DNA from: a virus
Direction: 5' to 3' (one strand)
UHGV virus genome: UHGV-1610946
DNA length: 13,320 bases
Shown here piece after piece: positions 1,253 through 12,837 of the stretch. Each line of letters starts with the position of its first letter. Position 1 is the stretch's first letter. Below the pieces are notes generated by a model that worked only from the letters and a program-made list of their open reading frames with translations, had not been told where the DNA came from and made no database searches. The position numbers and the translations under genes were made by a program.

Positions 1253-2659
1253 ATGGCTGATATATCAACACCCAACCTCGACTATAACGATATGCTGGAG
1301 GCGTGGGATATTAACGACGCACTGATGGGCGGTACGCTTGAAATGCGCAGGCAGGGGGAAAATTATCTCCCAAAATGGCCTAACGAAGATGAAGACGCTT
1401 ATAAAAAACGCCTGTCTGTGGCTACGCTACTTCCTGTGTATGAAGAAAGCATCAAGCAAAATATTGGGCGCATATTTGCAGAGCCGACAGTATTGAGTGA
1501 GGAAACGCCGGCAAAAATCAGGGAATATGCAGAAAATATCGACATGGAGGGAAGCCGACTGGATGTGTGGGCGCAGCAATTTTTCAGCCTCGCATTTCAG
1601 TATGGTGTGGCACATGCGCTGGTGGACTATCCACGAACGGATATGAAAGAGATTCGGACAAAAGCCGATGAAAACGCGGCCGGTAGTCGTCCGTACGTTA
1701 CGATGCTGAATCCACGCCAGGTTATTGGATGGAAATCGAAAGTTGAAAAAGGGAAAGTTGTTCTCACTGATTTGCGTATAAAAGAGGTCATCATTATTGA
1801 TGGTGATGATTTCGGGCAGAAGAAGGTGGAGCAGATCCGCCATATTATGCCCCGTCGAGTTGAAATTTATCGACGTAGCGAAGGCACTAATGGCGAATCT
1901 GTCTGGACGCTTCATGAGTCATGGAATACCAGCCGTGATGATATTCCTCTGGTAACACTGTACACGAAGAAAACAGGATTTATGCGTGGTACACCGCCAT
2001 TGCTTAATCTTGGCTTGCTGAATATCAAGCACTGGCAAAGCCAGAGCGAGCAGGACAATATTCTTCATGTTGCCCGCGTTCCATTGCTGGTGGCCTACGG
2101 GCTGGACAGGAATGAAGAACTGACGGTTGGTGCATCCACCGCTACGATTTTTGAGGACAGAACAAAAAATGGCCTCGAATATGTTGAACATAGTGGCGCA
2201 GCGATAGAATCTGGCGAAACATCACTTGAGAAGCTGGAAAATCAGATGCGTCATGCCGGCGCTAAACTTCTGCGTGCTGAAAATACATCCACCAAATCTG
2301 TTGATCAGACTAATGAAGAGCGAATGCAGGAAAACTCGCCGCTTTATACAATGGCGAACTCCCTCGAAGATGCCCTCGATAATATTCTCCAGATAATGGC
2401 GGAATGGATCGGAGAGAGTTGCGGTGGCAATGTGGATGTGCGCACTGAACTGGATGTATCTGCCCAGGTGTTTGACTCATCCTCCGCGCTGGCTGTTCAG
2501 TCATTGCGTCAGGGCGGTGATATACGTCAGATTGATGCGATTCGGGTGTTGCAGGCGTTGAAATTTATCGATCAGGATTCCCGTCCAGAGGAAGTGATCG
2601 ATGAATTAAAAAATCAGAGTGTAATGCTGATGGAAATCAATGATGCAAACCGTGAATGA
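1253..2659 (+). CDS. Portal protein (putative)
   Basis: 468-aa ORF starting 2 nt after the terminase stop and lying between TerL and the MuF-like gene, the canonical portal position. Size fits portal proteins. No diagnostic motif was verified from memory. Confidence 0.7.
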   Translation: MADISTPNLDYNDMLEAWDINDALMGGTLEMRRQGENYLPKWPNEDEDAYKKRLSVATLLPVYEESIKQNIGRIFAEPTVLSEETPAKIREYAENIDMEGSRLDVWAQQFFSLAFQYGVAHALVDYPRTDMKEIRTKADENAAGSRPYVTMLNPRQVIGWKSKVEKGKVVLTDLRIKEVIIIDGDDFGQKKVEQIRHIMPRRVEIYRRSEGTNGESVWTLHESWNTSRDDIPLVTLYTKKTGFMRGTPPLLNLGLLNIKHWQSQSEQDNILHVARVPLLVAYGLDRNEELTVGASTATIFEDRTKNGLEYVEHSGAAIESGETSLEKLENQMRHAGAKLLRAENTSTKSVDQTNEERMQENSPLYTMANSLEDALDNILQIMAEWIGESCGGNVDVRTELDVSAQVFDSSSALAVQSLRQGGDIRQIDAIRVLQALKFIDQDSRPEEVIDELKNQSVMLMEINDANRE

Positions 2660-3755
2660 ACGGCTGCGTGATGAATCAATTGCTCATGCAGTCTGGATAT
2701 CCCGCTATAGCACTGGCGTGGCTGCCAGAATGGTGAAAATACTGAATGACAGCGATGCGGAACTTACTGCTCGCCTGCTGATAGCACTGGACAGCCTCGA
2801 TCCAGGTAGTTTTACCGTTAAGCGCCTGGAGTCACTTCTGGCGAGCGTCAGAGAGGTTAACCGCACTGCTATTAACAGCATGTTTACCAGTCTCTCCGGA
2901 GAGCTGAACGAGCTGGCAATTTATGAGGCTGGTTATCAGTTAAGTCTGTTTGATTCTATGCTACCTGATTTTGTTGCTGATGTTCACCCTCTGGTTGGTA
3001 TCTCTCCTGATGCACTTTATGCCGCTGCAATGGCGCGACCATTTCAGGGACGACTGCTCAGTGAGTGGGCCTCAGATCTTGAGGCGGATCGGCTCAGACG
3101 CATAACAAATACAGTGCGTCAGGGTTTTTTGCTGGGGGATACCAATGAGCAGATCGCAAGAAAAATTCGGGGACATGTCAGTAAGGGATTTCAGGATGGT
3201 GCATTGCAGATGAGCCGGGCTAATGCGGCCAGCATTGCAAAAACAGCGGTTGGACATCTTGCTGCTACTGCCCGTGAGAGTTTTGCCAGCGCGAATAATG
3301 ATTTGATTAAGGGTAAGCAATGGTTATCAACGCTTGATAATCGTACTACGCCACAATGTCGAATCAGGGATCGCCTCAAATATACGCTGAATAATAAACC
3401 TGTAGGTCACAGCGTGCCTTATTTGCAGGGGCCGGGAAAAATTCATTTCTGCTGCCGCTCAACGGAAACGTTCATTCTGAAATCAGCGAAGGAACTGGGT
3501 ATTGATGTTCGCGATATTTCCCCGGCTGAGCGGGCCAGCATGGATGGCGTGGTGGCCGGAGATACAACCTACAGGGAATGGTTTTTGCGTCAGCCTTACA
3601 CCAGACAAAAACAGATTGTGGGGGAAACCCGAGCAAAGCTGATTCGGGATGGTGGTATGTCGCCAGATGAATTTTACACCGATAAAGGCGAATGGCTGAC
3701 GCTGAAGCAGCTCCGTGAGCGTGATGCACAGGTATTCAGAAAAGCAGGGATTTAA
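2640..3755 (+). CDS. Head morphogenesis protein, Mu F-like / SPP1 gp7 family
   Basis: 371-aa ORF overlapping the portal stop by 20 nt. Contains LDNRTTPQCR, which resembles the conserved motif of Phage_Mu_F-type proteins. Position between portal and scaffold is typical. The start could instead be a downstream in-frame codon. Confidence 0.75.
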   Translation: MMQTVNERLRDESIAHAVWISRYSTGVAARMVKILNDSDAELTARLLIALDSLDPGSFTVKRLESLLASVREVNRTAINSMFTSLSGELNELAIYEAGYQLSLFDSMLPDFVADVHPLVGISPDALYAAAMARPFQGRLLSEWASDLEADRLRRITNTVRQGFLLGDTNEQIARKIRGHVSKGFQDGALQMSRANAASIAKTAVGHLAATARESFASANNDLIKGKQWLSTLDNRTTPQCRIRDRLKYTLNNKPVGHSVPYLQGPGKIHFCCRSTETFILKSAKELGIDVRDISPAERASMDGVVAGDTTYREWFLRQPYTRQKQIVGETRAKLIRDGGMSPDEFYTDKGEWLTLKQLRERDAQVFRKAGI

Positions 3756-3774: not shown

Positions 3775-3802
3775 AGGCTACCTTCGGGTGGCCTTTTTTA
3801 TT
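3775..3802 (+). terminator. Intrinsic-terminator-like hairpin (7-bp stem, cUUCGg tetraloop, T6 run)
   Basis: GGCTACC(3776-3782) TTCG GGTGGCC(3787-3793) pairs as a 7-bp stem including one G-U wobble, followed directly by TTTTTTATT. Lies 20 nt after the MuF-like stop. Confidence 0.6.
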
Positions 3803-3859
3803 GCTGCGATCCGGATGGTGAGCAGCGTAACTGTCGGAAGACTTAAACCAGGTACTAAT

Positions 3860-4624
3860 ATGAAACTGAAAACGGTCGAGATTAACGGAAAACAATACGC
3901 AGAAATTGATACTGCTGGCCTGCCAGTTTATGTGCACGACGATGGTAAAGAAATTGGCTTCGATGCACCGCTGGCGACAAAAAAAATTACAGAGCTTAAT
4001 AGCGAGGCAAAAAATCATCGCCTGGCTAAAGAAGCTGCAGAGGAAAAACTGGCTAAGTTTGCCGCTATCGAAGACCCGAAGAAGGCGATCGAGGCACTGG
4101 AAATGCTGTCAAAAATCGACCAGAAAAAGCTGCTCGATGCGGGACAGGTTGACCAGGTTAAGGCAGAAATTACGAAAAATTTTCAGCAGCAATTAGATGA
4201 AGAAAAGCAACGCTCTCAGATGCTGGAGAAGCAGCTTTACGATTCTATGATTGGCGGTAGTTTTGCGGGTTCAAAATATATTGCCGATAAAATTGCGATC
4301 CCGGCAGATTTATTACAATCACGCTTCGGGCAGGCATTCAAAGTGGAAGAAGGGAGGATCGTTGCTTATGACGCTTCCGGCAACAAAATTTATTCCCGCG
4401 CGAAGCCTGGCGAACTGGCGCAGTTTGATGAGGCGCTGGAGTTCCTTGTCGAAAATTACCCTCAGAAAGACTACATCCTGAAAGCCAGTGGCAACAATGG
4501 CGGCGGCTCCCGTCCGACACAGCATGATATTGGTCAGAAAACGATGAAACGCTCTGCTTTTGATGCACTGGATGTTGCAGGTAAGCAAAACGCATTGAAA
4601 GACGGTATCACAATCGTTGATTAA
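3860..4624 (+). CDS. Putative head scaffolding protein
   Basis: Lies between the MuF-like gene and the major capsid gene. The product is rich in charged residues, with heptad-like stretches (KEAAEEKLAKFAAIEDPKKAIEALEMLSKIDQKKL) typical of scaffold proteins. Start is uncertain: the listed ORF begins at 3788 inside the terminator hairpin, which is implausible; in-frame ATGs occur at 3815 and 3860, the latter with a weak AGG upstream. Confidence 0.5.
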   Translation: MKLKTVEINGKQYAEIDTAGLPVYVHDDGKEIGFDAPLATKKITELNSEAKNHRLAKEAAEEKLAKFAAIEDPKKAIEALEMLSKIDQKKLLDAGQVDQVKAEITKNFQQQLDEEKQRSQMLEKQLYDSMIGGSFAGSKYIADKIAIPADLLQSRFGQAFKVEEGRIVAYDASGNKIYSRAKPGELAQFDEALEFLVENYPQKDYILKASGNNGGGSRPTQHDIGQKTMKRSAFDALDVAGKQNALKDGITIVD

Positions 4625-4633
4625 CACATTTGT

Positions 4634-4653
4634 CAGCTTCCGGATGGGAGCTG
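4634..4653 (+). other. Stable hairpin in the scaffold-capsid intergenic region (8-bp stem, GGAT loop, no T-run)
   Basis: CAGCTTCC(4634-4641) GGAT GGGAGCTG(4646-4653) gives seven Watson-Crick pairs plus one G-U. Begins 10 nt after the scaffold stop. No U-tract follows, so it is not a canonical terminator. Confidence 0.35.
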
Positions 4654-4722
4654 GTGTCAGGGCTGGATAGCTCATTACTCCATCTATTCACAATTACGCA
4701 AATTTTTAAGGAATATTTAATT

Positions 4723-5862
4723 ATGGCTGGAAATACCCTGACCGGGTTGATCCCGACTATTTATACCGCCCTGGATGTTGTATCCCGTGAGCAGGTAGGT
4801 TTTATCCCTGCGGTAGCAAAAAACGCAAAAGCTGACGCCGCAGCAAAAGATCAGACGGTAACCGCGCCAGTTGCGCCTGAGGCGAAAACCGAAGATATCG
4901 TACCGGGGCCGTCAGCTCCGAATACCGGTGATCAAAATATTGGCACTGTTGATGTAAAAATTACTAAATCCAAAATGGCACCGGTTAAATGGAATGGTGA
5001 AGAACAACTGGCTCTTGGTCCTTCAGGGACTTACAACACCATTCTGGCTGATCAGTTCAAGCAGGCTTTTCGCGCCCTTGCAAACGAGGTTGAGGCTGAT
5101 CTTGGTGCGTTGTATTTCGGTGCTTCCCGCGCCGTGGGAACCGCAGGGACAACGCCGTTTGGTGTTAAAGATGATCTTTCTGATGCTGCTCTGGCTCGTC
5201 AGGTTCTGGAGGATAACGGCGCACCGACAACCGATCTGCAGATGGTGCTTGGCTCCACTGCCATTGCTAATTTGCGCGGAAAACAGTCTGTATTGTTTAA
5301 AGTGAATGAATCCGGCACTGAACAGCTACTGCGTGAGGGCGTGTTGGGGCGTCTGGAGGGATTCAATATTCACAGTTCGGCAGGTGTGAAACGAGCGCCA
5401 AAGGTTGCTGCAACTGGTTATCTCGTGAATGGAGAGAAAAAAGAAGGCGATGTTCTTATTTCCATTGATACTGGTTCGGGGAGTATTTCTGCAGGTCAGA
5501 TTGTTACGTTCGCTGGTGATCCGAATCAGTATGTTGTGGCAGCAGCGACCAGCAATCTGATTACTCTTGCAGCGCCCGGACTGCGTCAGGATCTGGCCGA
5601 TGATACTGCCATCACAGTTGTTGGGGCCTTTACTGCAAATATGGCGTTTGATCGCAACGCGTTTCTGCTGGCATCCCGTACTCCGGCAATGCCGGAAGGT
5701 GGCGATAATGCTGATGATGTAATGAATGTTACGGACCCGATTTCAGGGATTACGTTCCAGATTGCACTGTATCGTCAGTATCGCCAGGTGCGCTATGAAG
5801 TTGGACTGGCATGGGGTGTTTCATCAGTGAAGCCGGCACATGGTTGTCTGATTCTTGGTTAA
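4723..5862 (+). CDS. Major capsid protein (putative)
   Basis: 379 aa from ATG 4723, which has a good Shine-Dalgarno (AAGGA at 4708-4712, 10-nt spacer). The listed ORF starts at 4630 with no RBS. Position is immediately after the scaffold gene. Family assignment is from context only. Confidence 0.65.
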   Translation: MAGNTLTGLIPTIYTALDVVSREQVGFIPAVAKNAKADAAAKDQTVTAPVAPEAKTEDIVPGPSAPNTGDQNIGTVDVKITKSKMAPVKWNGEEQLALGPSGTYNTILADQFKQAFRALANEVEADLGALYFGASRAVGTAGTTPFGVKDDLSDAALARQVLEDNGAPTTDLQMVLGSTAIANLRGKQSVLFKVNESGTEQLLREGVLGRLEGFNIHSSAGVKRAPKVAATGYLVNGEKKEGDVLISIDTGSGSISAGQIVTFAGDPNQYVVAAATSNLITLAAPGLRQDLADDTAITVVGAFTANMAFDRNAFLLASRTPAMPEGGDNADDVMNVTDPISGITFQIALYRQYRQVRYEVGLAWGVSSVKPAHGCLILG

Positions 5863-5871
5863 ACATTCAAA

Positions 5872-5895
5872 CGGGGCTTCGGCCCCATTTTTAAT
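5872..5895 (+). terminator. Intrinsic-terminator-like hairpin (5-bp GC stem, cUUCGg tetraloop, T5 run)
   Basis: GGGGC(5873-5877) TTCG GCCCC(5882-5886) followed by ATTTTTAAT. Lies 10 nt after the capsid stop. Confidence 0.6.
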
Positions 5896-5904
5896 GGGGG
5901 GCAT

Positions 5905-6081
5905 ATGGCCGGATTAACTAAAGAGCAAAGAGCACAGCGTGAAGCCGCACAAAAAACGCAAATTGAGTTAGTGGTTATGGTGACCGATTATCAGATGTTT
6001 CCCGGCGCACCAACTATCGCTAATGTTCATCCTGATGAAGTTGACAACTGGAAGGCTATGGGCTGGAAAACTCAGGAGTAA
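5905..6081 (+). CDS. Small hypothetical protein (58 aa), absent from the supplied ORF track
   Basis: ATG 5905 is preceded by a G6 run (5896-5901). The frame is open for 58 codons (MAGLTKEQRAQREAAQKTQIELVVMVTDYQMFPGAPTIANVHPDEVDNWKAMGWKTQE) to TAA 6079-6081, and the next gene's Shine-Dalgarno (AGGAG) overlaps its last codons. It fills an otherwise non-coding gap between the capsid and connector genes. Confidence 0.4.
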   Translation: MAGLTKEQRAQREAAQKTQIELVVMVTDYQMFPGAPTIANVHPDEVDNWKAMGWKTQE

Positions 6082-7659: not shown

Positions 7660-8622
7660 GTGAGTTCAGGTGCAAAGGTTATCTCGGCATTTATCCGGGA
7701 GACAGTTGCAGGCACTACGCCAGCAAGTGGTGACTGGAGTTTATTAAAACGCACAAGCTGGGGAGTAAAACCCACCCAGAATAAAGGCGAAAATAATGAG
7801 ATTGGTGGCTCCCGGATGGCTCAGGGGGCGACGCCTGGCACTGTGGATGTCGGCGGTGATGTTGGTACCAAATTTCGCTGGGGTCAACATGATGATTTTC
7901 TTGCATCCTGTTTCGGCGCGGAATGGTCAGGCGATTCTCTGACAATGGGGAATGAGCGAATAACATTTTCTCTGGCGACCTATGCGTCCGATGTCGGAAT
8001 TGCCTCTGTCGTCAGAGGAGCGCAGGTTGGCTCATGGAAAATGCAGATCCCTAACGACGGCGATATTACAGCGACCGTAACCTTTGCCGGGCTGGGCTGG
8101 GAAACAAAGGCCGATGATACGAATTTTATCAAAGGCAAACCTGTGGATAGTGCAGGAAAGTTACGCTATTCGTTTAAGGAGGTTTCAGCAGTAAGCCTGA
8201 ATGGTGTTGCCGGAGGTAACGGTTTTTGTATCGACAGTTTTGATATTCAGTTCGATAACAAACTCCAGACACAGCGTTGTATCGGGACTGGCTCGCCTTA
8301 TGCAGGAGCAAATATTCCGACTACTTTTACACCGTCCGGTACGGTGACGCTTTCATGGTCTAAAGCCGCGTGGGAAATCTGGAGTAAAACACTGACTGGA
8401 GAAACAGTTCCGTTCAGCTTCACGCTTTCGAATGGAGAGGGGGCATACACTTTCAGTTTCCCGAAGGTTCAGGTGTCAGGTGAATGGCCTGATGGGGGTA
8501 ATACTGACATTATCCAGGTTCAATTGAGCATTACCGCAGCAGATGAAGCACCTACGATAACCAGAAAAAAATGCTCCCCGACTGCCGTGATCGCAAAAGC
8601 CAGTGCTGATGCGATTAGTTGA
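7660..8622 (+). CDS. Major tail (tube) protein (putative)
   Basis: 320-aa ORF with GTG start and a strong Shine-Dalgarno (AGGAGG at 7648-7653, 6-nt spacer). Lies directly upstream of the chaperone frameshift pair and tape measure gene, the conserved major tail position. Product is rich in Gly/Ser/Thr. Confidence 0.65.
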   Translation: MSSGAKVISAFIRETVAGTTPASGDWSLLKRTSWGVKPTQNKGENNEIGGSRMAQGATPGTVDVGGDVGTKFRWGQHDDFLASCFGAEWSGDSLTMGNERITFSLATYASDVGIASVVRGAQVGSWKMQIPNDGDITATVTFAGLGWETKADDTNFIKGKPVDSAGKLRYSFKEVSAVSLNGVAGGNGFCIDSFDIQFDNKLQTQRCIGTGSPYAGANIPTTFTPSGTVTLSWSKAAWEIWSKTLTGETVPFSFTLSNGEGAYTFSFPKVQVSGEWPDGGNTDIIQVQLSITAADEAPTITRKKCSPTAVIAKASADAIS

Positions 8623-8634
8623 TTTTCCGTTATT

Positions 8635-8661
8635 CCCCCTGTGGTACTGCACTACAGGGGG
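8635..8661 (+). promoter_or_regulatory. Hairpin after the major tail gene whose 3' arm overlaps the likely RBS of the chaperone gene
   Basis: CCCCCTGT(8635-8642) and ACAGGGGG(8654-8661) are perfect reverse complements (8-bp stem, up to 11 bp with a wobble). No T-run follows. The GGGGG of the right arm is the only Shine-Dalgarno-like element for ATG 8671. Confidence 0.45.
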
Positions 8662-8670
8662 ACGCATTGA

Positions 8671-9560: not shown

Positions 9561-9587
9561 AAACCCACTTCGGTGGGCTTTTTGTTG
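9561..9587 (+). terminator. Terminator-like hairpin (5-bp stem, cUUCGg tetraloop, T5 run) upstream of the tape measure gene
   Basis: CCCAC(9564-9568) TTCG GTGGG(9573-9577) followed by CTTTTTGTTG. It lies in a 163-bp non-coding gap between the chaperone extension and the tape measure start, 17 nt before that gene's GGAG Shine-Dalgarno. Confidence 0.5.
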
Positions 9588-9603: not shown

Positions 9604-12600
9604 ATGGCAGAGCAAACCTCGCGTCTCGCAATAATTATTGATAGCACTGGAGCAAAAAATAATGCTGACAATCTGACCTCCTCATTAGTCAAAATGACGC
9701 AGGCCGGGGAAACTGCTGCAAATAGCGCAGGGAAAGTGACTAAGGCAACAGAAGATGAGAAGAACGCGCTCGCAAAATTAAAAGCAGCTATTGATCCAGT
9801 TGGTGCCGCAATTGATACTGTCGGTCGACGCTATTCTGAATTAAAGAAATTTTTCGATAAAGGGCTTATTGATAAAGAAGAATATGAATTTCTTGTCCGT
9901 AAACTTAATGAAACCACAGAGGAATTGAGCGGGGTTGCGCAAGCGCAGAGAGAAGCCGAGAAGGCCGGAAAACTTGCTGCCGCCCAGCAGGAAGCGCAGG
10001 CTCAGGCCTTTCAAAGAATGCTGGACAAGATCGACCCTCTGGCTGCGGCGCTAAGAAATCTTGAACAACAGCAGGATGAACTTAATGCTGCGTTTGCATC
10101 CGGGAAAATAAATGGTTCTCAGTTTGAGAATTATAGCCGAAAAATACAGGAAACACGGCGAGAGCTTACCGGAGAGGCTCAGGCAGAGCGAGAAGCAGCA
10201 AAAGCGCATGATGAACAGGTTGCTGCTTTGCAACGTCTGATTGCTCAACTTGACCCTGTCGGAACTGCTTTTAATCGTCTGGTAGAACAACAGAAACAGC
10301 TCAATGAAGCAAAAGCTAAGGGGATGCTCTCTCCTGAAATGTATGAGGAACTTTCTGGAAAACTTCGTGCTATGCGGAGTGAGCTTGAGGTTACTCAATC
10401 TCAATTAAGCAAAACCGGAATGTCGGCAAAACAAACGGCTTTTGCTATGCGCATGTTGCCTGCACAAATGACGGATATTGTTGTTGGGTTGTCCACTGGT
10501 CAGTCGCCTTTTATGGTGTTAATGCAGCAGGGCGGCCAGCTAAAAGATATGTTCGGTGGGATTGGCCCGGCGATCAAAGGTGTTGGTTCTTATGTGCTGG
10601 GATTAATTAATCCTTTTACCCTGGCCGCAGCAGCCGTTGGCGTCTTAGGGCTGGCTTACTATAAAGGCTCTCAGGAGCAGGACGAATTTAATAAATCTCT
10701 TATTCTTACCGGAAATCAGTTGGGGACAACCAGCGGGCAATTGGCCGATATAGCTCAACGTGCCGGGAATGCGGCTGATTCGACAACTGGCGCTGCGGCG
10801 GCAGTATTAAACCAGCTTGTGCGTTCGGGAAAGGTAGCGAGCAGTTCGCTGGAGCAAGTGACGACAGCGATAGTAAAAACGAGCGAAGTAACAGGAATAT
10901 CAACCGAACAACTGGTTAATGACTTCAATGAAATTGCAAAGGATCCTGTCAGTGCCATATCAAAACTTAATGATCAGTACCATTTTCTGACAATTGCGAC
11001 TTATAACCAGATTAAGGCGCTACAGGATGAAGGGAACCAGCAGGAGGCCGCCCGCATTGCGACAGAAGCATACTCATCCTCAATGATCCAGCGCACCAAC
11101 CAGATTAAAGAAAATCTTGGTTATCTTGAGGCTGCATGGAAAGCTGTCGCAGACTCCGCAAAATGGGCATGGGATTCCATGCTGGACATTGGCCGTGAGG
11201 CCTCCCTTGATCAAAAAATCTCAGATGTTCTCCGTCAAATTGATGAAATAGAAAAAAATACCCGACCCGGAGTTTTCGGGTTAGGTGGCATTGGAGATGG
11301 CGGAGCTCAAAATAAAAGGCTGGCACGATTAAAGCAGCAATTGGGCGTACTTCAAGCAGAAAAAATTGCTCAGGACGTCCTAAATTCATCAATAAACGAT
11401 TACAACAAGCGACAACAGGAAGGAATTGAACTCAGACAGAGAGCAGATGCCTTTTCAAAACAATATCAGACCCGGGAGCAGCAGAGAGCTAGTGAACTTG
11501 CAAAACTGGAAAAGCTAAAGAGTCAGTATTCAAAGGAAGAATATAATAATTTTATCGCTCAAATAAATGAGCGTTATAAAGATCCAAAGCAACCAAAGGC
11601 GAAAGGTTATTCGGATGATGCTGCCCAACGAATGATTGATCATCTGAATCAACAGAATGCGTTACTAAGTTCACAAACTGAATTAACCGTTAAATTAAGT
11701 TCCTCTGAACAGGAACTGGTTAAGTGGCGTCAGCAGATTGCCGACCTGGAGTCACGACCGTCATCGAAATTAACCCAGGATCAGAAATCGCTTCTCTTAC
11801 ACCGGGAAGAAATAACCGCGTTGATGGAGAAAAATGTTGCGATTGAAAAAAATAACAGGCTAATCAAGGAATCCGCCGAAATAGCTGCATGGCGTGATTT
11901 ATTGCAGGCTTCGATTGATAATCGTCAACAGGGGTATGATATTCAGATTGCTGGTTATGGGGTTGGCGATAAAAATCAGCAACGCCAGCAGGAATTACTG
12001 CGGATTGAACGTGAATATAACAATCAGCGTCTGCAACTTGAACGTGACTATGCAGATAAATCCCGTGGGATGTCAAATCATGTTTTTCAGGAGAAAATGC
12101 AGGCTCTGAATGATGCTCTGGAACGAGAAAAAGAAATTGTCAGACAGAAAAACGAGCAGCTCGATATTCAGGCAGGAGACTGGGTTAGTGGTGCCTCCCA
12201 GGGATTCAATAACTGGCTGGATGACACTAAGGATATCAGTGAGCAGATAAAATCAACCACGACTCAGATGTTTGATGGAATGACCGATGCGCTGGGTGAT
12301 TTTGTCACGACAGGCAAGGCAAATTTTCGTTCTTTCGCTACTTCCGTGATTTCGGATCTTAGTCGAATAGCATTAAAGGCTTCAATTACTGGGATTTTCG
12401 ACAGCATTAGTAACAGTTCTTCGGGGGGGATTTTAGGAACTATCGGGAGTGCTATTAGTAAATTTATTCCGAATGCAAAGGGCGGTGTTTATGAGTCTCC
12501 GTCATTGAACACGTATTCGAACGGTATTTATGATTCCCCGCAATTTTTTGCTTTTGCAAAAGGGGCTGGTGTTTTTGGTGAGGCTGGTCCGGAAGCCATT

Positions 12601-12837
12601 ATGCCATTAACACGAACATCCGATGGTTCTCTTGGTGTCAGAGCTATTAATAGTAAAAGTGGTAATGGAGGCGGAGATATTACCTATGCCCCTGTATACC
12701 AAATCACTATTCAAAATGACGGCCAGAATGGAGAGATTGGCCCTCAGGCAATAAAAGCACTTATGGGGATGGTTGATCAGCGGGTGCAGGGCAATCTGTT
12801 AAATATGCGACGTGATGGGGGAATGTTAAGTGGCTAA
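9604..12837 (+). CDS. Tail tape measure protein (lambda gpH-like)
   Basis: 1077-aa ORF with Shine-Dalgarno GGAG 9 nt upstream, lying immediately downstream of the frameshifted chaperone pair and upstream of gpM/gpL homologues. It has a long coiled-coil-like N-terminal region with three internal repeats of roughly 70-80 aa, a hydrophobic Gly/Ala-rich segment ([35 protein letters not shown]), and a C-terminal [11 protein letters not shown] segment that resembles lambda-family tape measure C-termini as I recall them. Confidence 0.9.

Follow-up and report, generated by a model that had tools for sequence, protein, structure and literature searches.

The interval between the major capsid gene of a phage late operon and the small open reading frame (ORF) that follows it raises the question of whether two potential RNA stems that share bases form a regulatory switch, or whether one of them is an ordinary terminator-type hairpin and the other a by-product of the sequences around it. 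A sequence-only reading of the window (the whole 13.3-kb stretch of DNA analysed here) had proposed a switch, in which a terminator behind the capsid gene and an overlapping hairpin sequestering the Shine-Dalgarno (SD) sequence of the small ORF would be mutually exclusive, so that termination would be coupled to initiation of the small ORF. Every base named in that proposal lies where it was placed.

The window belongs to a Rac-like lambdoid prophage of Escherichia coli and spans the head and tail section of its late operon, with genes on the + strand throughout. Induced E. coli phages match it exactly or almost exactly, and prophages matching it to the same degree are present in 761 of 5426 complete E. 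coli genomes. The copy in E. coli SE11 includes trkG, ydaY, stfR and tfaR and is therefore classed as Rac-like; the intact prophage copy in this strain also carries a Q-like antiterminator gene (phrog_753, E 2e-79) upstream of the lysis genes. Gene order in the window runs from the large terminase (153-1250), portal (1253-2659) and MuF-like minor head protein (2640-3755) to the scaffold (DUF6651; true start ATG 3860, end 4624), the major capsid protein (4723-5862) and the 58-aa ORF (5905-6081). Genes for head-tail adaptor, head closure, neck and tail terminator proteins lie between the 58-aa ORF and the major tail protein (7660-8622), and the tail chaperones occupy the space between the major tail protein and the tape measure protein (9604-12837). 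The capsid protein has a P22-coat-like fold and matches both Pfam P22_CoatProtein and phrog_283 'major head protein' (E 2.1e-136), with the latter alignment beginning at residue 34 of the mechanically called ORF. We discarded the TTG start at 4630 given by that call and took ATG 4723 as the true start, which is supported by the 1140-nt CDS annotated by PGAP at the matching position in SE11. No promoter-like site was found in a scan of the scaffold-capsid region, and an Rfam scan of the whole window returned zero matches at E ≤ 1.

The terminator-type hairpin (5873-5886, + strand) begins 10 nt past the capsid stop codon and is composed of five G-C pairs, formed by the arms GGGGC (5873-5877) and GCCCC (5882-5886), and a UUCG tetraloop (5878-5881). 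Immediately 3′ of the stem are A5887, U5888-5892 and AA, together AUUUUUAA (5887-5894, + strand), which is the expected release zone if the hairpin terminates transcription; the G-run at 5896-5901 and the ATG at 5905 come next. Predicted folding energy was -11.1 kcal/mol with a z-score of -2.81, only 2 of 200 shuffled sequences folded as well, and the hairpin was also detected by a consensus scan. A GC-rich stem with a short loop and a U tract directly on its 3′ side are two features of an intrinsic terminator, and both occur here. Its weak points are a stem of just 5 bp and the A that directly follows the stem, and the hairpin could be a weak terminator in vitro.

For comparison, we gathered 132 related loci by their capsid protein, together with four diverged phages, and scored conservation on sets of distinct relatives numbering 59 for a survey of every gene junction, 61 for the U tract and 64 for an alignment of the intergenic regions. 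At the capsid/small-ORF junction, 95% of the 59 relatives have a hairpin of -8 kcal/mol or better, and hairpins are absent from the tightly packed junctions of the operon. The hairpin is found 4-17 nt after the capsid stop codon (median 8 nt among the 64 relatives) and is present in essentially every distinct sequence as capsid identity falls from 100% to 71%. Within the alignment of 64 distinct intergenic regions, the five stem pairs are formed in 98.4% of cells, with compensatory changes at two of the pairs; Photorhabdus phages and prophages carry a GC-to-AU compensatory change, for example GGGGA...UCCCC, and the loop varies among UUCG, UUAG, UGCG, UACG, UUUG, CUCG and others. The 8 nt 3′ of the stem contain a mean of 6.0 U and 1.2 A across the 61 relatives, with at least five U in 54 and an initial UUU in 48, and the 8 nt upstream of the stem are A-rich. 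Of 138 loci, 102 contain the pattern GGGGCTNCGGCCCC a single time, in every case on the + strand, and in all but one (L009) it directly follows the capsid gene. At about 50% capsid identity, the same place is occupied by strong GC hairpins of unrelated sequence (-17 to -22 kcal/mol) in relatives from Cupriavidus, Pararobbsia, Desulfuromonadales and Xanthobacter. The 14-mer GGGGCUNCGGCCCC is almost invariant where the flanking coding DNA is just 67-70% identical, and conservation of the hairpin exceeds that of the coat protein. As judged from fold energy, shuffles, conservation and compensatory changes, the hairpin is a conserved functional element, and in placing a terminator-type hairpin after the capsid gene the sequence-only reading was right.

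We consider it quite probable, on this sequence evidence, that 5873-5894 is an intrinsic-terminator-type hairpin with its U tract, serving as an ordinary post-capsid terminator or stabiliser of a known class. A fraction of late transcripts would end in the U tract or, alternatively, 3′ exonucleases would trim processed transcripts back to the hairpin. By either route, the scaffold-capsid message would be more abundant or longer-lived than the messages of the downstream head-completion genes, whose products are needed in far fewer copies per virion. Termination is probably partial, because the prophage encodes a Q-like antiterminator; the operon would otherwise be read through by Q-modified polymerase, with the hairpin acting as a partial terminator and a stabiliser of the 3′ end. 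Q-modified polymerase should ignore most intrinsic terminators, which counts against termination. Only 10 nt separate the capsid stop codon from the stem, and a ribosome close behind could hinder hairpin formation by transiently blocking the 5′ arm; such a link through the terminating ribosome, from translation to termination, is more plausible than coupling in the reverse direction. Read-through transcripts would carry the small ORF, with its SD simply positioned after the U tract.

The second stem exists, as had been claimed, and is longer than the five pairs first described. CCCCAUU (5883-5889) can pair with AAUGGGG (5893-5899) in a 7-bp hairpin with a 3-nt loop (5883-5899, + strand), and in a second register GCCCC (5882-5886) pairs with GGGGC (5898-5902); each register has an energy of -9.5 kcal/mol. 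Bases 5882-5887 are common to this stem and the terminator, and the G-run GGGGGG at 5896-5901 (+ strand) that it would occlude is indeed the only SD-like element ahead of ATG 5905. Further points in favour of a switch between the two folds are that the energies are close (-11.1 and -9.5 kcal/mol), the barrier from the terminator fold to the alternative is a modest 7.4 kcal/mol as estimated with findpath, and the alternative dominates in some folding contexts. We nevertheless regard the switch as hardly credible, since the order of transcription and the comparison with relatives both stand against it. Termination is decided while the polymerase is on the U tract, that is, on 5888-5892 and a base or two beyond, and the 3′ arm of the alternative (5893-5902) is transcribed only once the polymerase has passed that point; the alternative cannot act as an antiterminator because this arm does not yet exist at the termination decision. 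By sequence order, terminated RNAs have no SD at all. The two folds would compete only in read-through RNAs, in which the terminator would form first and leave the SD free.

Comparison with the relatives gave the alternative stem neither conservation nor covariation. Its pairs in the two registers were formed in 64.5% and 58.8% of cells across the 64 relatives, equal to the 63-68% and 55-61% of slid controls in which the same helices were moved 1-3 columns along the alignment, and this level is the expectation wherever a C-run faces a G-rich SD. Pairing between the 3′ arm and the SD reached three or more expected base pairs in only 4 of the 64 distinct relatives, all of which have a GGG or GGGG run in the SD; the expectation was below one pair in 55 of them, with a median of 0.09 bp. 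Neither lambda nor HK97 can form a counterpart stem, since the lambda 3′ arm is G-rich and HK97 lacks a G-run. Segments containing the alternative stem had z-scores of -1.3 to -1.4, and for 5880-5925, 17 of 200 shuffles folded as well (z -1.39), which is not above chance. Coupling of termination and small-ORF translation is not supported.

What makes the alternative hairpin competitive in the window is a single base. Nearly every relative uses GGAG(G) as the SD of the small ORF, and G5898 is a derived A-to-G change from the family-wide GGAGGG, the single difference at this position between the nearest relatives (AAUGGAGGGCAU) and the window (AAUGGGGGGCAU). With the ancestral A5898, the alternative fold drops to -7.1 kcal/mol and loses to the terminator, whose probability is at least 0.95 in each folding context tried; with G5898, the terminator probability can be as low as 0.03 or as high as 0.97 according to how long the folded RNA is, and either fold can dominate. 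Structure prediction in several contexts, which the sequence-only reading had suggested as a check, gave an answer that depends on the allele, and of the sequestration idea itself, the competitiveness of the second fold held for the window allele and its maintenance in the family did not. We conclude that the alternative hairpin is a by-product of a C-rich 3′ arm facing a G-rich SD, and that it is competitive in this E. coli lineage only through A5898G.

A narrower reading is that the allele tunes translation: read-through RNAs with GGGGGG would partly refold, and pairing of the SD with the 3′ arm would lower the yield of the 58-aa protein relative to GGAGGG. The shift in terminator probability between the alleles is consistent with this, as is SD accessibility, which spans 0.05-0.37 for the window allele depending on the folding context and is lower for G than for A in both 5840-5950 (0.18 vs 0.49) and 5840-6000 (0.05 vs 0.64). 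Of the 734 E. coli genomes with the locus, 610 (83%) contain the exact 71-mer 5855-5925 with the GGGGGG allele; the SD point mutation that creates the competing fold is thus in the majority, and similar pairing is predicted independently in two other lineages with a GGGG SD (L105/L107 and L013/L116). Allele frequency, however, may reflect mere clonal spread of one prophage lineage. Predictions shift widely with folded length and none of the folds beats shuffled sequence, the terminator is the first to form during transcription and its UUCG loop is unusually stable, and binding to the anti-SD is nearly equal for the two alleles (duplex with the 16S 3′ end at -9.3 kcal/mol for G and -9.8 for A). 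We judge such tuning unlikely; at most, A5898G would lower translation of the 58-aa protein in read-through RNA.

One further long-range pairing was considered and set aside. In folds of 5840-5960 and 5800-6000, part of the 5′ arm and loop (5875-5881) pairs with 5938-5944 inside the small ORF. This was treated as fortuitous because the partner corresponds to about residues 12-14, ahead of the variable linker, with residue 13 itself varying, and because the 5840-5940 segment folds no better than shuffles.

Lack of conservation of the small ORF had been named as an observation that would count against the proposal, and the ORF proved to be well conserved. Its product matches phrog_1514 (E 3.5e-43) and has 416 homologous clusters, all of them unnamed; identity in diverged phages is 60-72%, and variability is greatest at third codon positions. 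By these sequence comparisons, the ORF is a real, conserved gene. In the protein, a linker rich in Q and E, whose length varies greatly, separates a conserved N-terminus (MAGLTKEQRAQR) from a C-terminal domain of about 35 aa that is also conserved. AlphaFold predicted a helix-strand-strand-helix arrangement, with strand-strand-helix in the C-terminal domain, at a pLDDT of 80.5 overall and above 90 in that domain. Searching the model against PDB folds gave no hit with E below 1, the sequence had zero matches among PDB sequences, and the window protein matched zero Pfam families, with other members of the family giving chance-level hits only (best E 0.016). The MxxLT(K/R) N-terminus and an APxxxxVHxxE(V/I) stretch led us to suspect a CsrA/RsmA-like regulator. 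That likeness was rejected: BLASTP aligned just a 12-residue stretch (E 0.028), and the searches of Pfam, PDB sequences and PDB folds gave no match in its favour.

The survey of gene junctions showed that the post-capsid hairpin is one of several, with others located after the MuF-like gene, the major tail gene and the chaperone genes. A second terminator-type hairpin, AGGCUACC-UUCG-GGUGGCCU (3775-3794, + strand) followed by UUUUUUAU, lies after the MuF-like gene and upstream of the scaffold start; it is conserved, with compensatory stem variants in relatives. Behind the major tail protein gene there is a 12-bp hairpin without a U tract (8634-8662, + strand; -22.3 kcal/mol, z -4.81, with none of 200 shuffles as good), and 12 of 13 relatives sharing the tail gene have a hairpin of -8 kcal/mol or better at that junction. 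Between the tail chaperones and the tape measure gene is the hairpin CCCAC-UUCG-GUGGG (9564-9577, + strand), followed by CUUUUUGU.

The leaders of the scaffold and capsid genes each carry a tandem pair of hairpins with GGAU-type loops. A covariance model (R1) finds exactly two sites in the window, both on the + strand: 3797-3848 in the scaffold leader, with GGAU and GGAA loops (50.8 bits, E 2.7e-15), and 4626-4677 in the capsid leader, with GGAU loops (58.6 bits, E 8e-18). Among 48 distinct copies, 10 of the 11 pairs show compensatory changes, and 94.5% of cells are paired compared with 25-52% when the helices are slid. Both loops keep an invariant GGA, the first loop also an invariant U, and the two GGA triplets are 22-24 nt apart. 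Across 0.97 Mb of related loci, the model found 145 sites, all of them on the coding strand and all closely preceding a scaffold or capsid gene. Among them are copies in loci that did not contribute to the model (Cupriavidus, Pararobbsia, Janthinobacterium and Tolumonas) and a second, scaffold-proximal copy in a Xanthobacter locus. In some scaffold leaders the pair is joined by a third hairpin beside the SD, with a GGAU or GGAA loop. Chance matches made up most of the output of a pattern scan of viral contigs, which we filtered with the covariance model; the divergent copies in IMG/VR again precede scaffold or capsid homologues. In distant phages with the motif, no homologue of the 58-aa protein was detected beside the capsid gene, a further point against the CsrA-like reading of that protein. 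The motif has no match in Rfam and is absent from P22, whose scaffold and coat genes lack leaders.

CsrA-family proteins bind short hairpins with GGA in the loop (PMC7366521), and the motif fits the layout of CsrA-type sites, with GGA in short hairpin loops and at least two sites close together. Burkholderia cepacia and B. cenocepacia are reported to lack a chromosomal csrA (PMC7366521), and some of the host groups bearing the motif may lack CsrA. Autoregulation of the P22 scaffold is attributed to Wyckoff and Casjens (1985), as cited in PMC2115188, and by analogy a phage-encoded binder, for example the scaffold itself, would be equally possible. A tentative reading, possible although we would not favour it, is that 3775-5886 forms a conserved post-transcriptional cassette with the post-capsid hairpin as its 3′ boundary, in which a protein that binds GGAU loops sets the synthesis of scaffold and capsid. 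The order would be hairpin (3775-3794), GGAU pair (3797-3848), scaffold, GGAU pair (4626-4677), capsid and hairpin (5873-5886); binding would fall to CsrA of the host or to a phage product, for example the scaffold. The hairpins on either side would mark the limits of a processed message and make it more stable, and A5898G would add a small lineage-specific cut in translation of the 58-aa protein. This strongly covarying RNA motif may be a regulatory operator; we find it more interesting than the hairpin that was originally put forward, and it holds the practical value of this follow-up.

Returning to the post-capsid hairpin and its preferred reading as a terminator or stabiliser, capsid-adjacent terminators are known in other phages. 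T7 has T-phi after its major capsid gene 10 and LUZ100 has a terminator after its capsid gene, which in these phages curbs transcription into later structural genes (PMC10134795). Unlike the window, they rely on a single-subunit RNA polymerase of their own and on a promoter dedicated to the capsid gene. When we looked in the literature for experiments on post-capsid hairpins in lambdoid phages, this T7-like example was the only one found.

Closer counterparts occur in lambdoid genomes, annotated in RefSeq for P22 and HK97 and visible in the lambda sequence. Phage P22 (NC_002371) has a 'stem_loop 6102..6119, putative; similar in location to stem-loops in phage HK97 and phage lambda', which sits directly after the stop codon of coat gene 5, the same placement as in the window. 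Its sequence is AGGGGC-UGCG-GCCCCU followed by UUCUUUA and UGGAG, and the order of elements is also shared: hairpin, U-rich stretch, GGAG SD, small ORF (orf69) and head-tail adaptor gene. Between the core GGGGC-UGCG-GCCCC and the GGGGC-UUCG-GCCCC of the window, 13 of 14 positions agree, even though the coat proteins of the two phages are just 21% identical over 165 residues and orf69 is unrelated to the 58-aa protein (E 2.3). Unlike the window, P22 with its GGAG SD has no competitive alternative stem. At the E/FI junction of lambda, UGGCCC-UUCG-GGGCCA begins 3 nt past the E stop codon; as in the window, U-rich sequence comes next and then an SD, here GGAGGAG, ahead of the FI start. The lambda late operon is subject to antitermination by Q, and Sampson et al. 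in 1988 reportedly attributed the expression ratios of its late genes mainly to translation initiation and not to RNA level, which counts against the preferred reading.

The near-invariance of the 14-mer goes beyond what base pairing needs and could be a sign that the sequence itself is recognised, as opposed to serving as a generic terminator. On that account the hairpin would mainly be a recognition or processing site for an RNase or RNA-binding protein, and the persistence of the 14-mer between diverged coding sequences, together with its recurrence in P22, argues in its favour. However, compensatory stem variants and several loops are tolerated, distant relatives use wholly different GC hairpins, and the lambda and HK97 sequences differ; four G-C pairs with a C-UNCG-G loop also make the most stable short hairpin, and convergence on it is plausible. 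We therefore hold such a recognition role to be very unlikely and retain the terminator or stabiliser reading.

The features shared by the lambdoid post-capsid stem-loops are all present in the window: no more than about 20 nt separate the capsid stop codon from the hairpin, which is on the coding strand, and the next head-completion gene has its own SD. On sequence and position, the hairpin is a member of the class already recognised in P22, HK97 and lambda, and a terminator-like hairpin after the major capsid gene of a lambdoid phage, having been recognised before, matters little by itself. HK97 (NC_002167, regulatory 5192..5213) has a putative terminator after its major head gene gp5, a GC hairpin with a U tract a few nucleotides past the capsid stop codon as in the window. 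Its sequence is different (GGGCGGG-GAAA-CCCGCCC), the adaptor gene comes directly next where the window has an intervening small ORF, and its capsid is of the HK97 fold with a protease, in contrast to the P22-like coat with scaffold of the window. Two further putative terminators flank the major tail gene of HK97, and in both HK97 and the window the highly expressed late genes are punctuated alike by hairpins.

The leaders of the scaffold gene (3797-3848, plus strand) and of the capsid gene (4626-4677, plus strand) each carry two tandem hairpins, every one of them capped by an invariant GGAU loop, and a third hairpin of the same type adjoins the Shine-Dalgarno sequence in some scaffold leaders. 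Across 0.97 Mb of related loci, a covariance model of the tandem arrangement (R1) located 145 copies; each has the coding-strand orientation and immediately precedes a scaffold or capsid gene, and the range extends to prophages of Beta- and Alphaproteobacteria. Further examples lie at 3982-4033 in related locus L041, 4878-4929 in L048, 3949-3998 in L045 and 2430-2484 in L179. Compensatory changes were observed in 10 of 11 pairs of the tandem hairpins, and the motif had no match in Rfam. The tandem GGAU hairpins may be a new cis-regulatory RNA motif.

Immediately 5′ of the scaffold leader motif, and 3′ of the MuF-like gene, is a terminator-type hairpin (AGGCUACC-UUCG-GGUGGCCU, followed by UUUUUUAU; 3775-3794, plus strand) that is kept across relatives with compensatory changes; some relatives have a tandem pair of terminators at this junction. 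Because the hairpin overlaps the GTG at 3788 that was called automatically as the scaffold start, ATG 3860 is the real one. Transcription of the scaffold and capsid genes presumably passes through the hairpin by Q antitermination.

Both the capsid gene and the downstream small ORF open with ATGGC(T/C)GGA (Met-Ala-Gly; 4723-4731 and 5905-5913, respectively). Over its first 13 nucleotides the small ORF hardly varies in DNA among relatives that share only 67-70% identity in their coding DNA. The 58-aa product of the ORF (5905-6081, plus strand; counterpart at 2111-2449 in L002) is conserved; its N-terminus and C-terminal domain, both conserved, are joined by a linker of highly variable length. 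Klebsiella phage 5 LV-2017 has a long (EQQ)n repeat as linker, bringing the protein to 112 aa. A search for a structural match to the 58-aa protein found none. Within the ORF, a consensus scan marked a terminator-like site on the minus strand (5932-5950), and the plus strand of this segment is the predicted long-range partner, in larger folds, of the 5′ arm of the terminator hairpin that follows the capsid gene (5873-5886); this is probably fortuitous. In the E. coli genomes H56 and H57 (NZ_CP148483.1 and NZ_CP148427.1), both from chicken isolates, the match is shorter by 1-2 bases, and one ORF under it carries the annotation 'protein singed' instead of the hypothetical protein of other genomes.

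Hairpins also occur at tail-gene junctions. One, CCCAC-UUCG-GUGGG, followed by CUUUUUGU (9564-9577, plus strand), lies in the 163 nt that separate the tail chaperone genes from the tape measure gene; its stem is longer in close relatives (GAAACCCAC...GUGGGUUUU). Directly 3′ of the major tail protein gene lies a very stable 12-bp hairpin (8634-8662, plus strand; -22.3 kcal/mol, z -4.8) without a U tract; 12 of the 13 relatives having the same tail gene carry a hairpin at this junction, and HK97 has annotated putative terminators at equivalent places. The GGAU leader motif, for its part, resembles CsrA-type GGA-loop sites.
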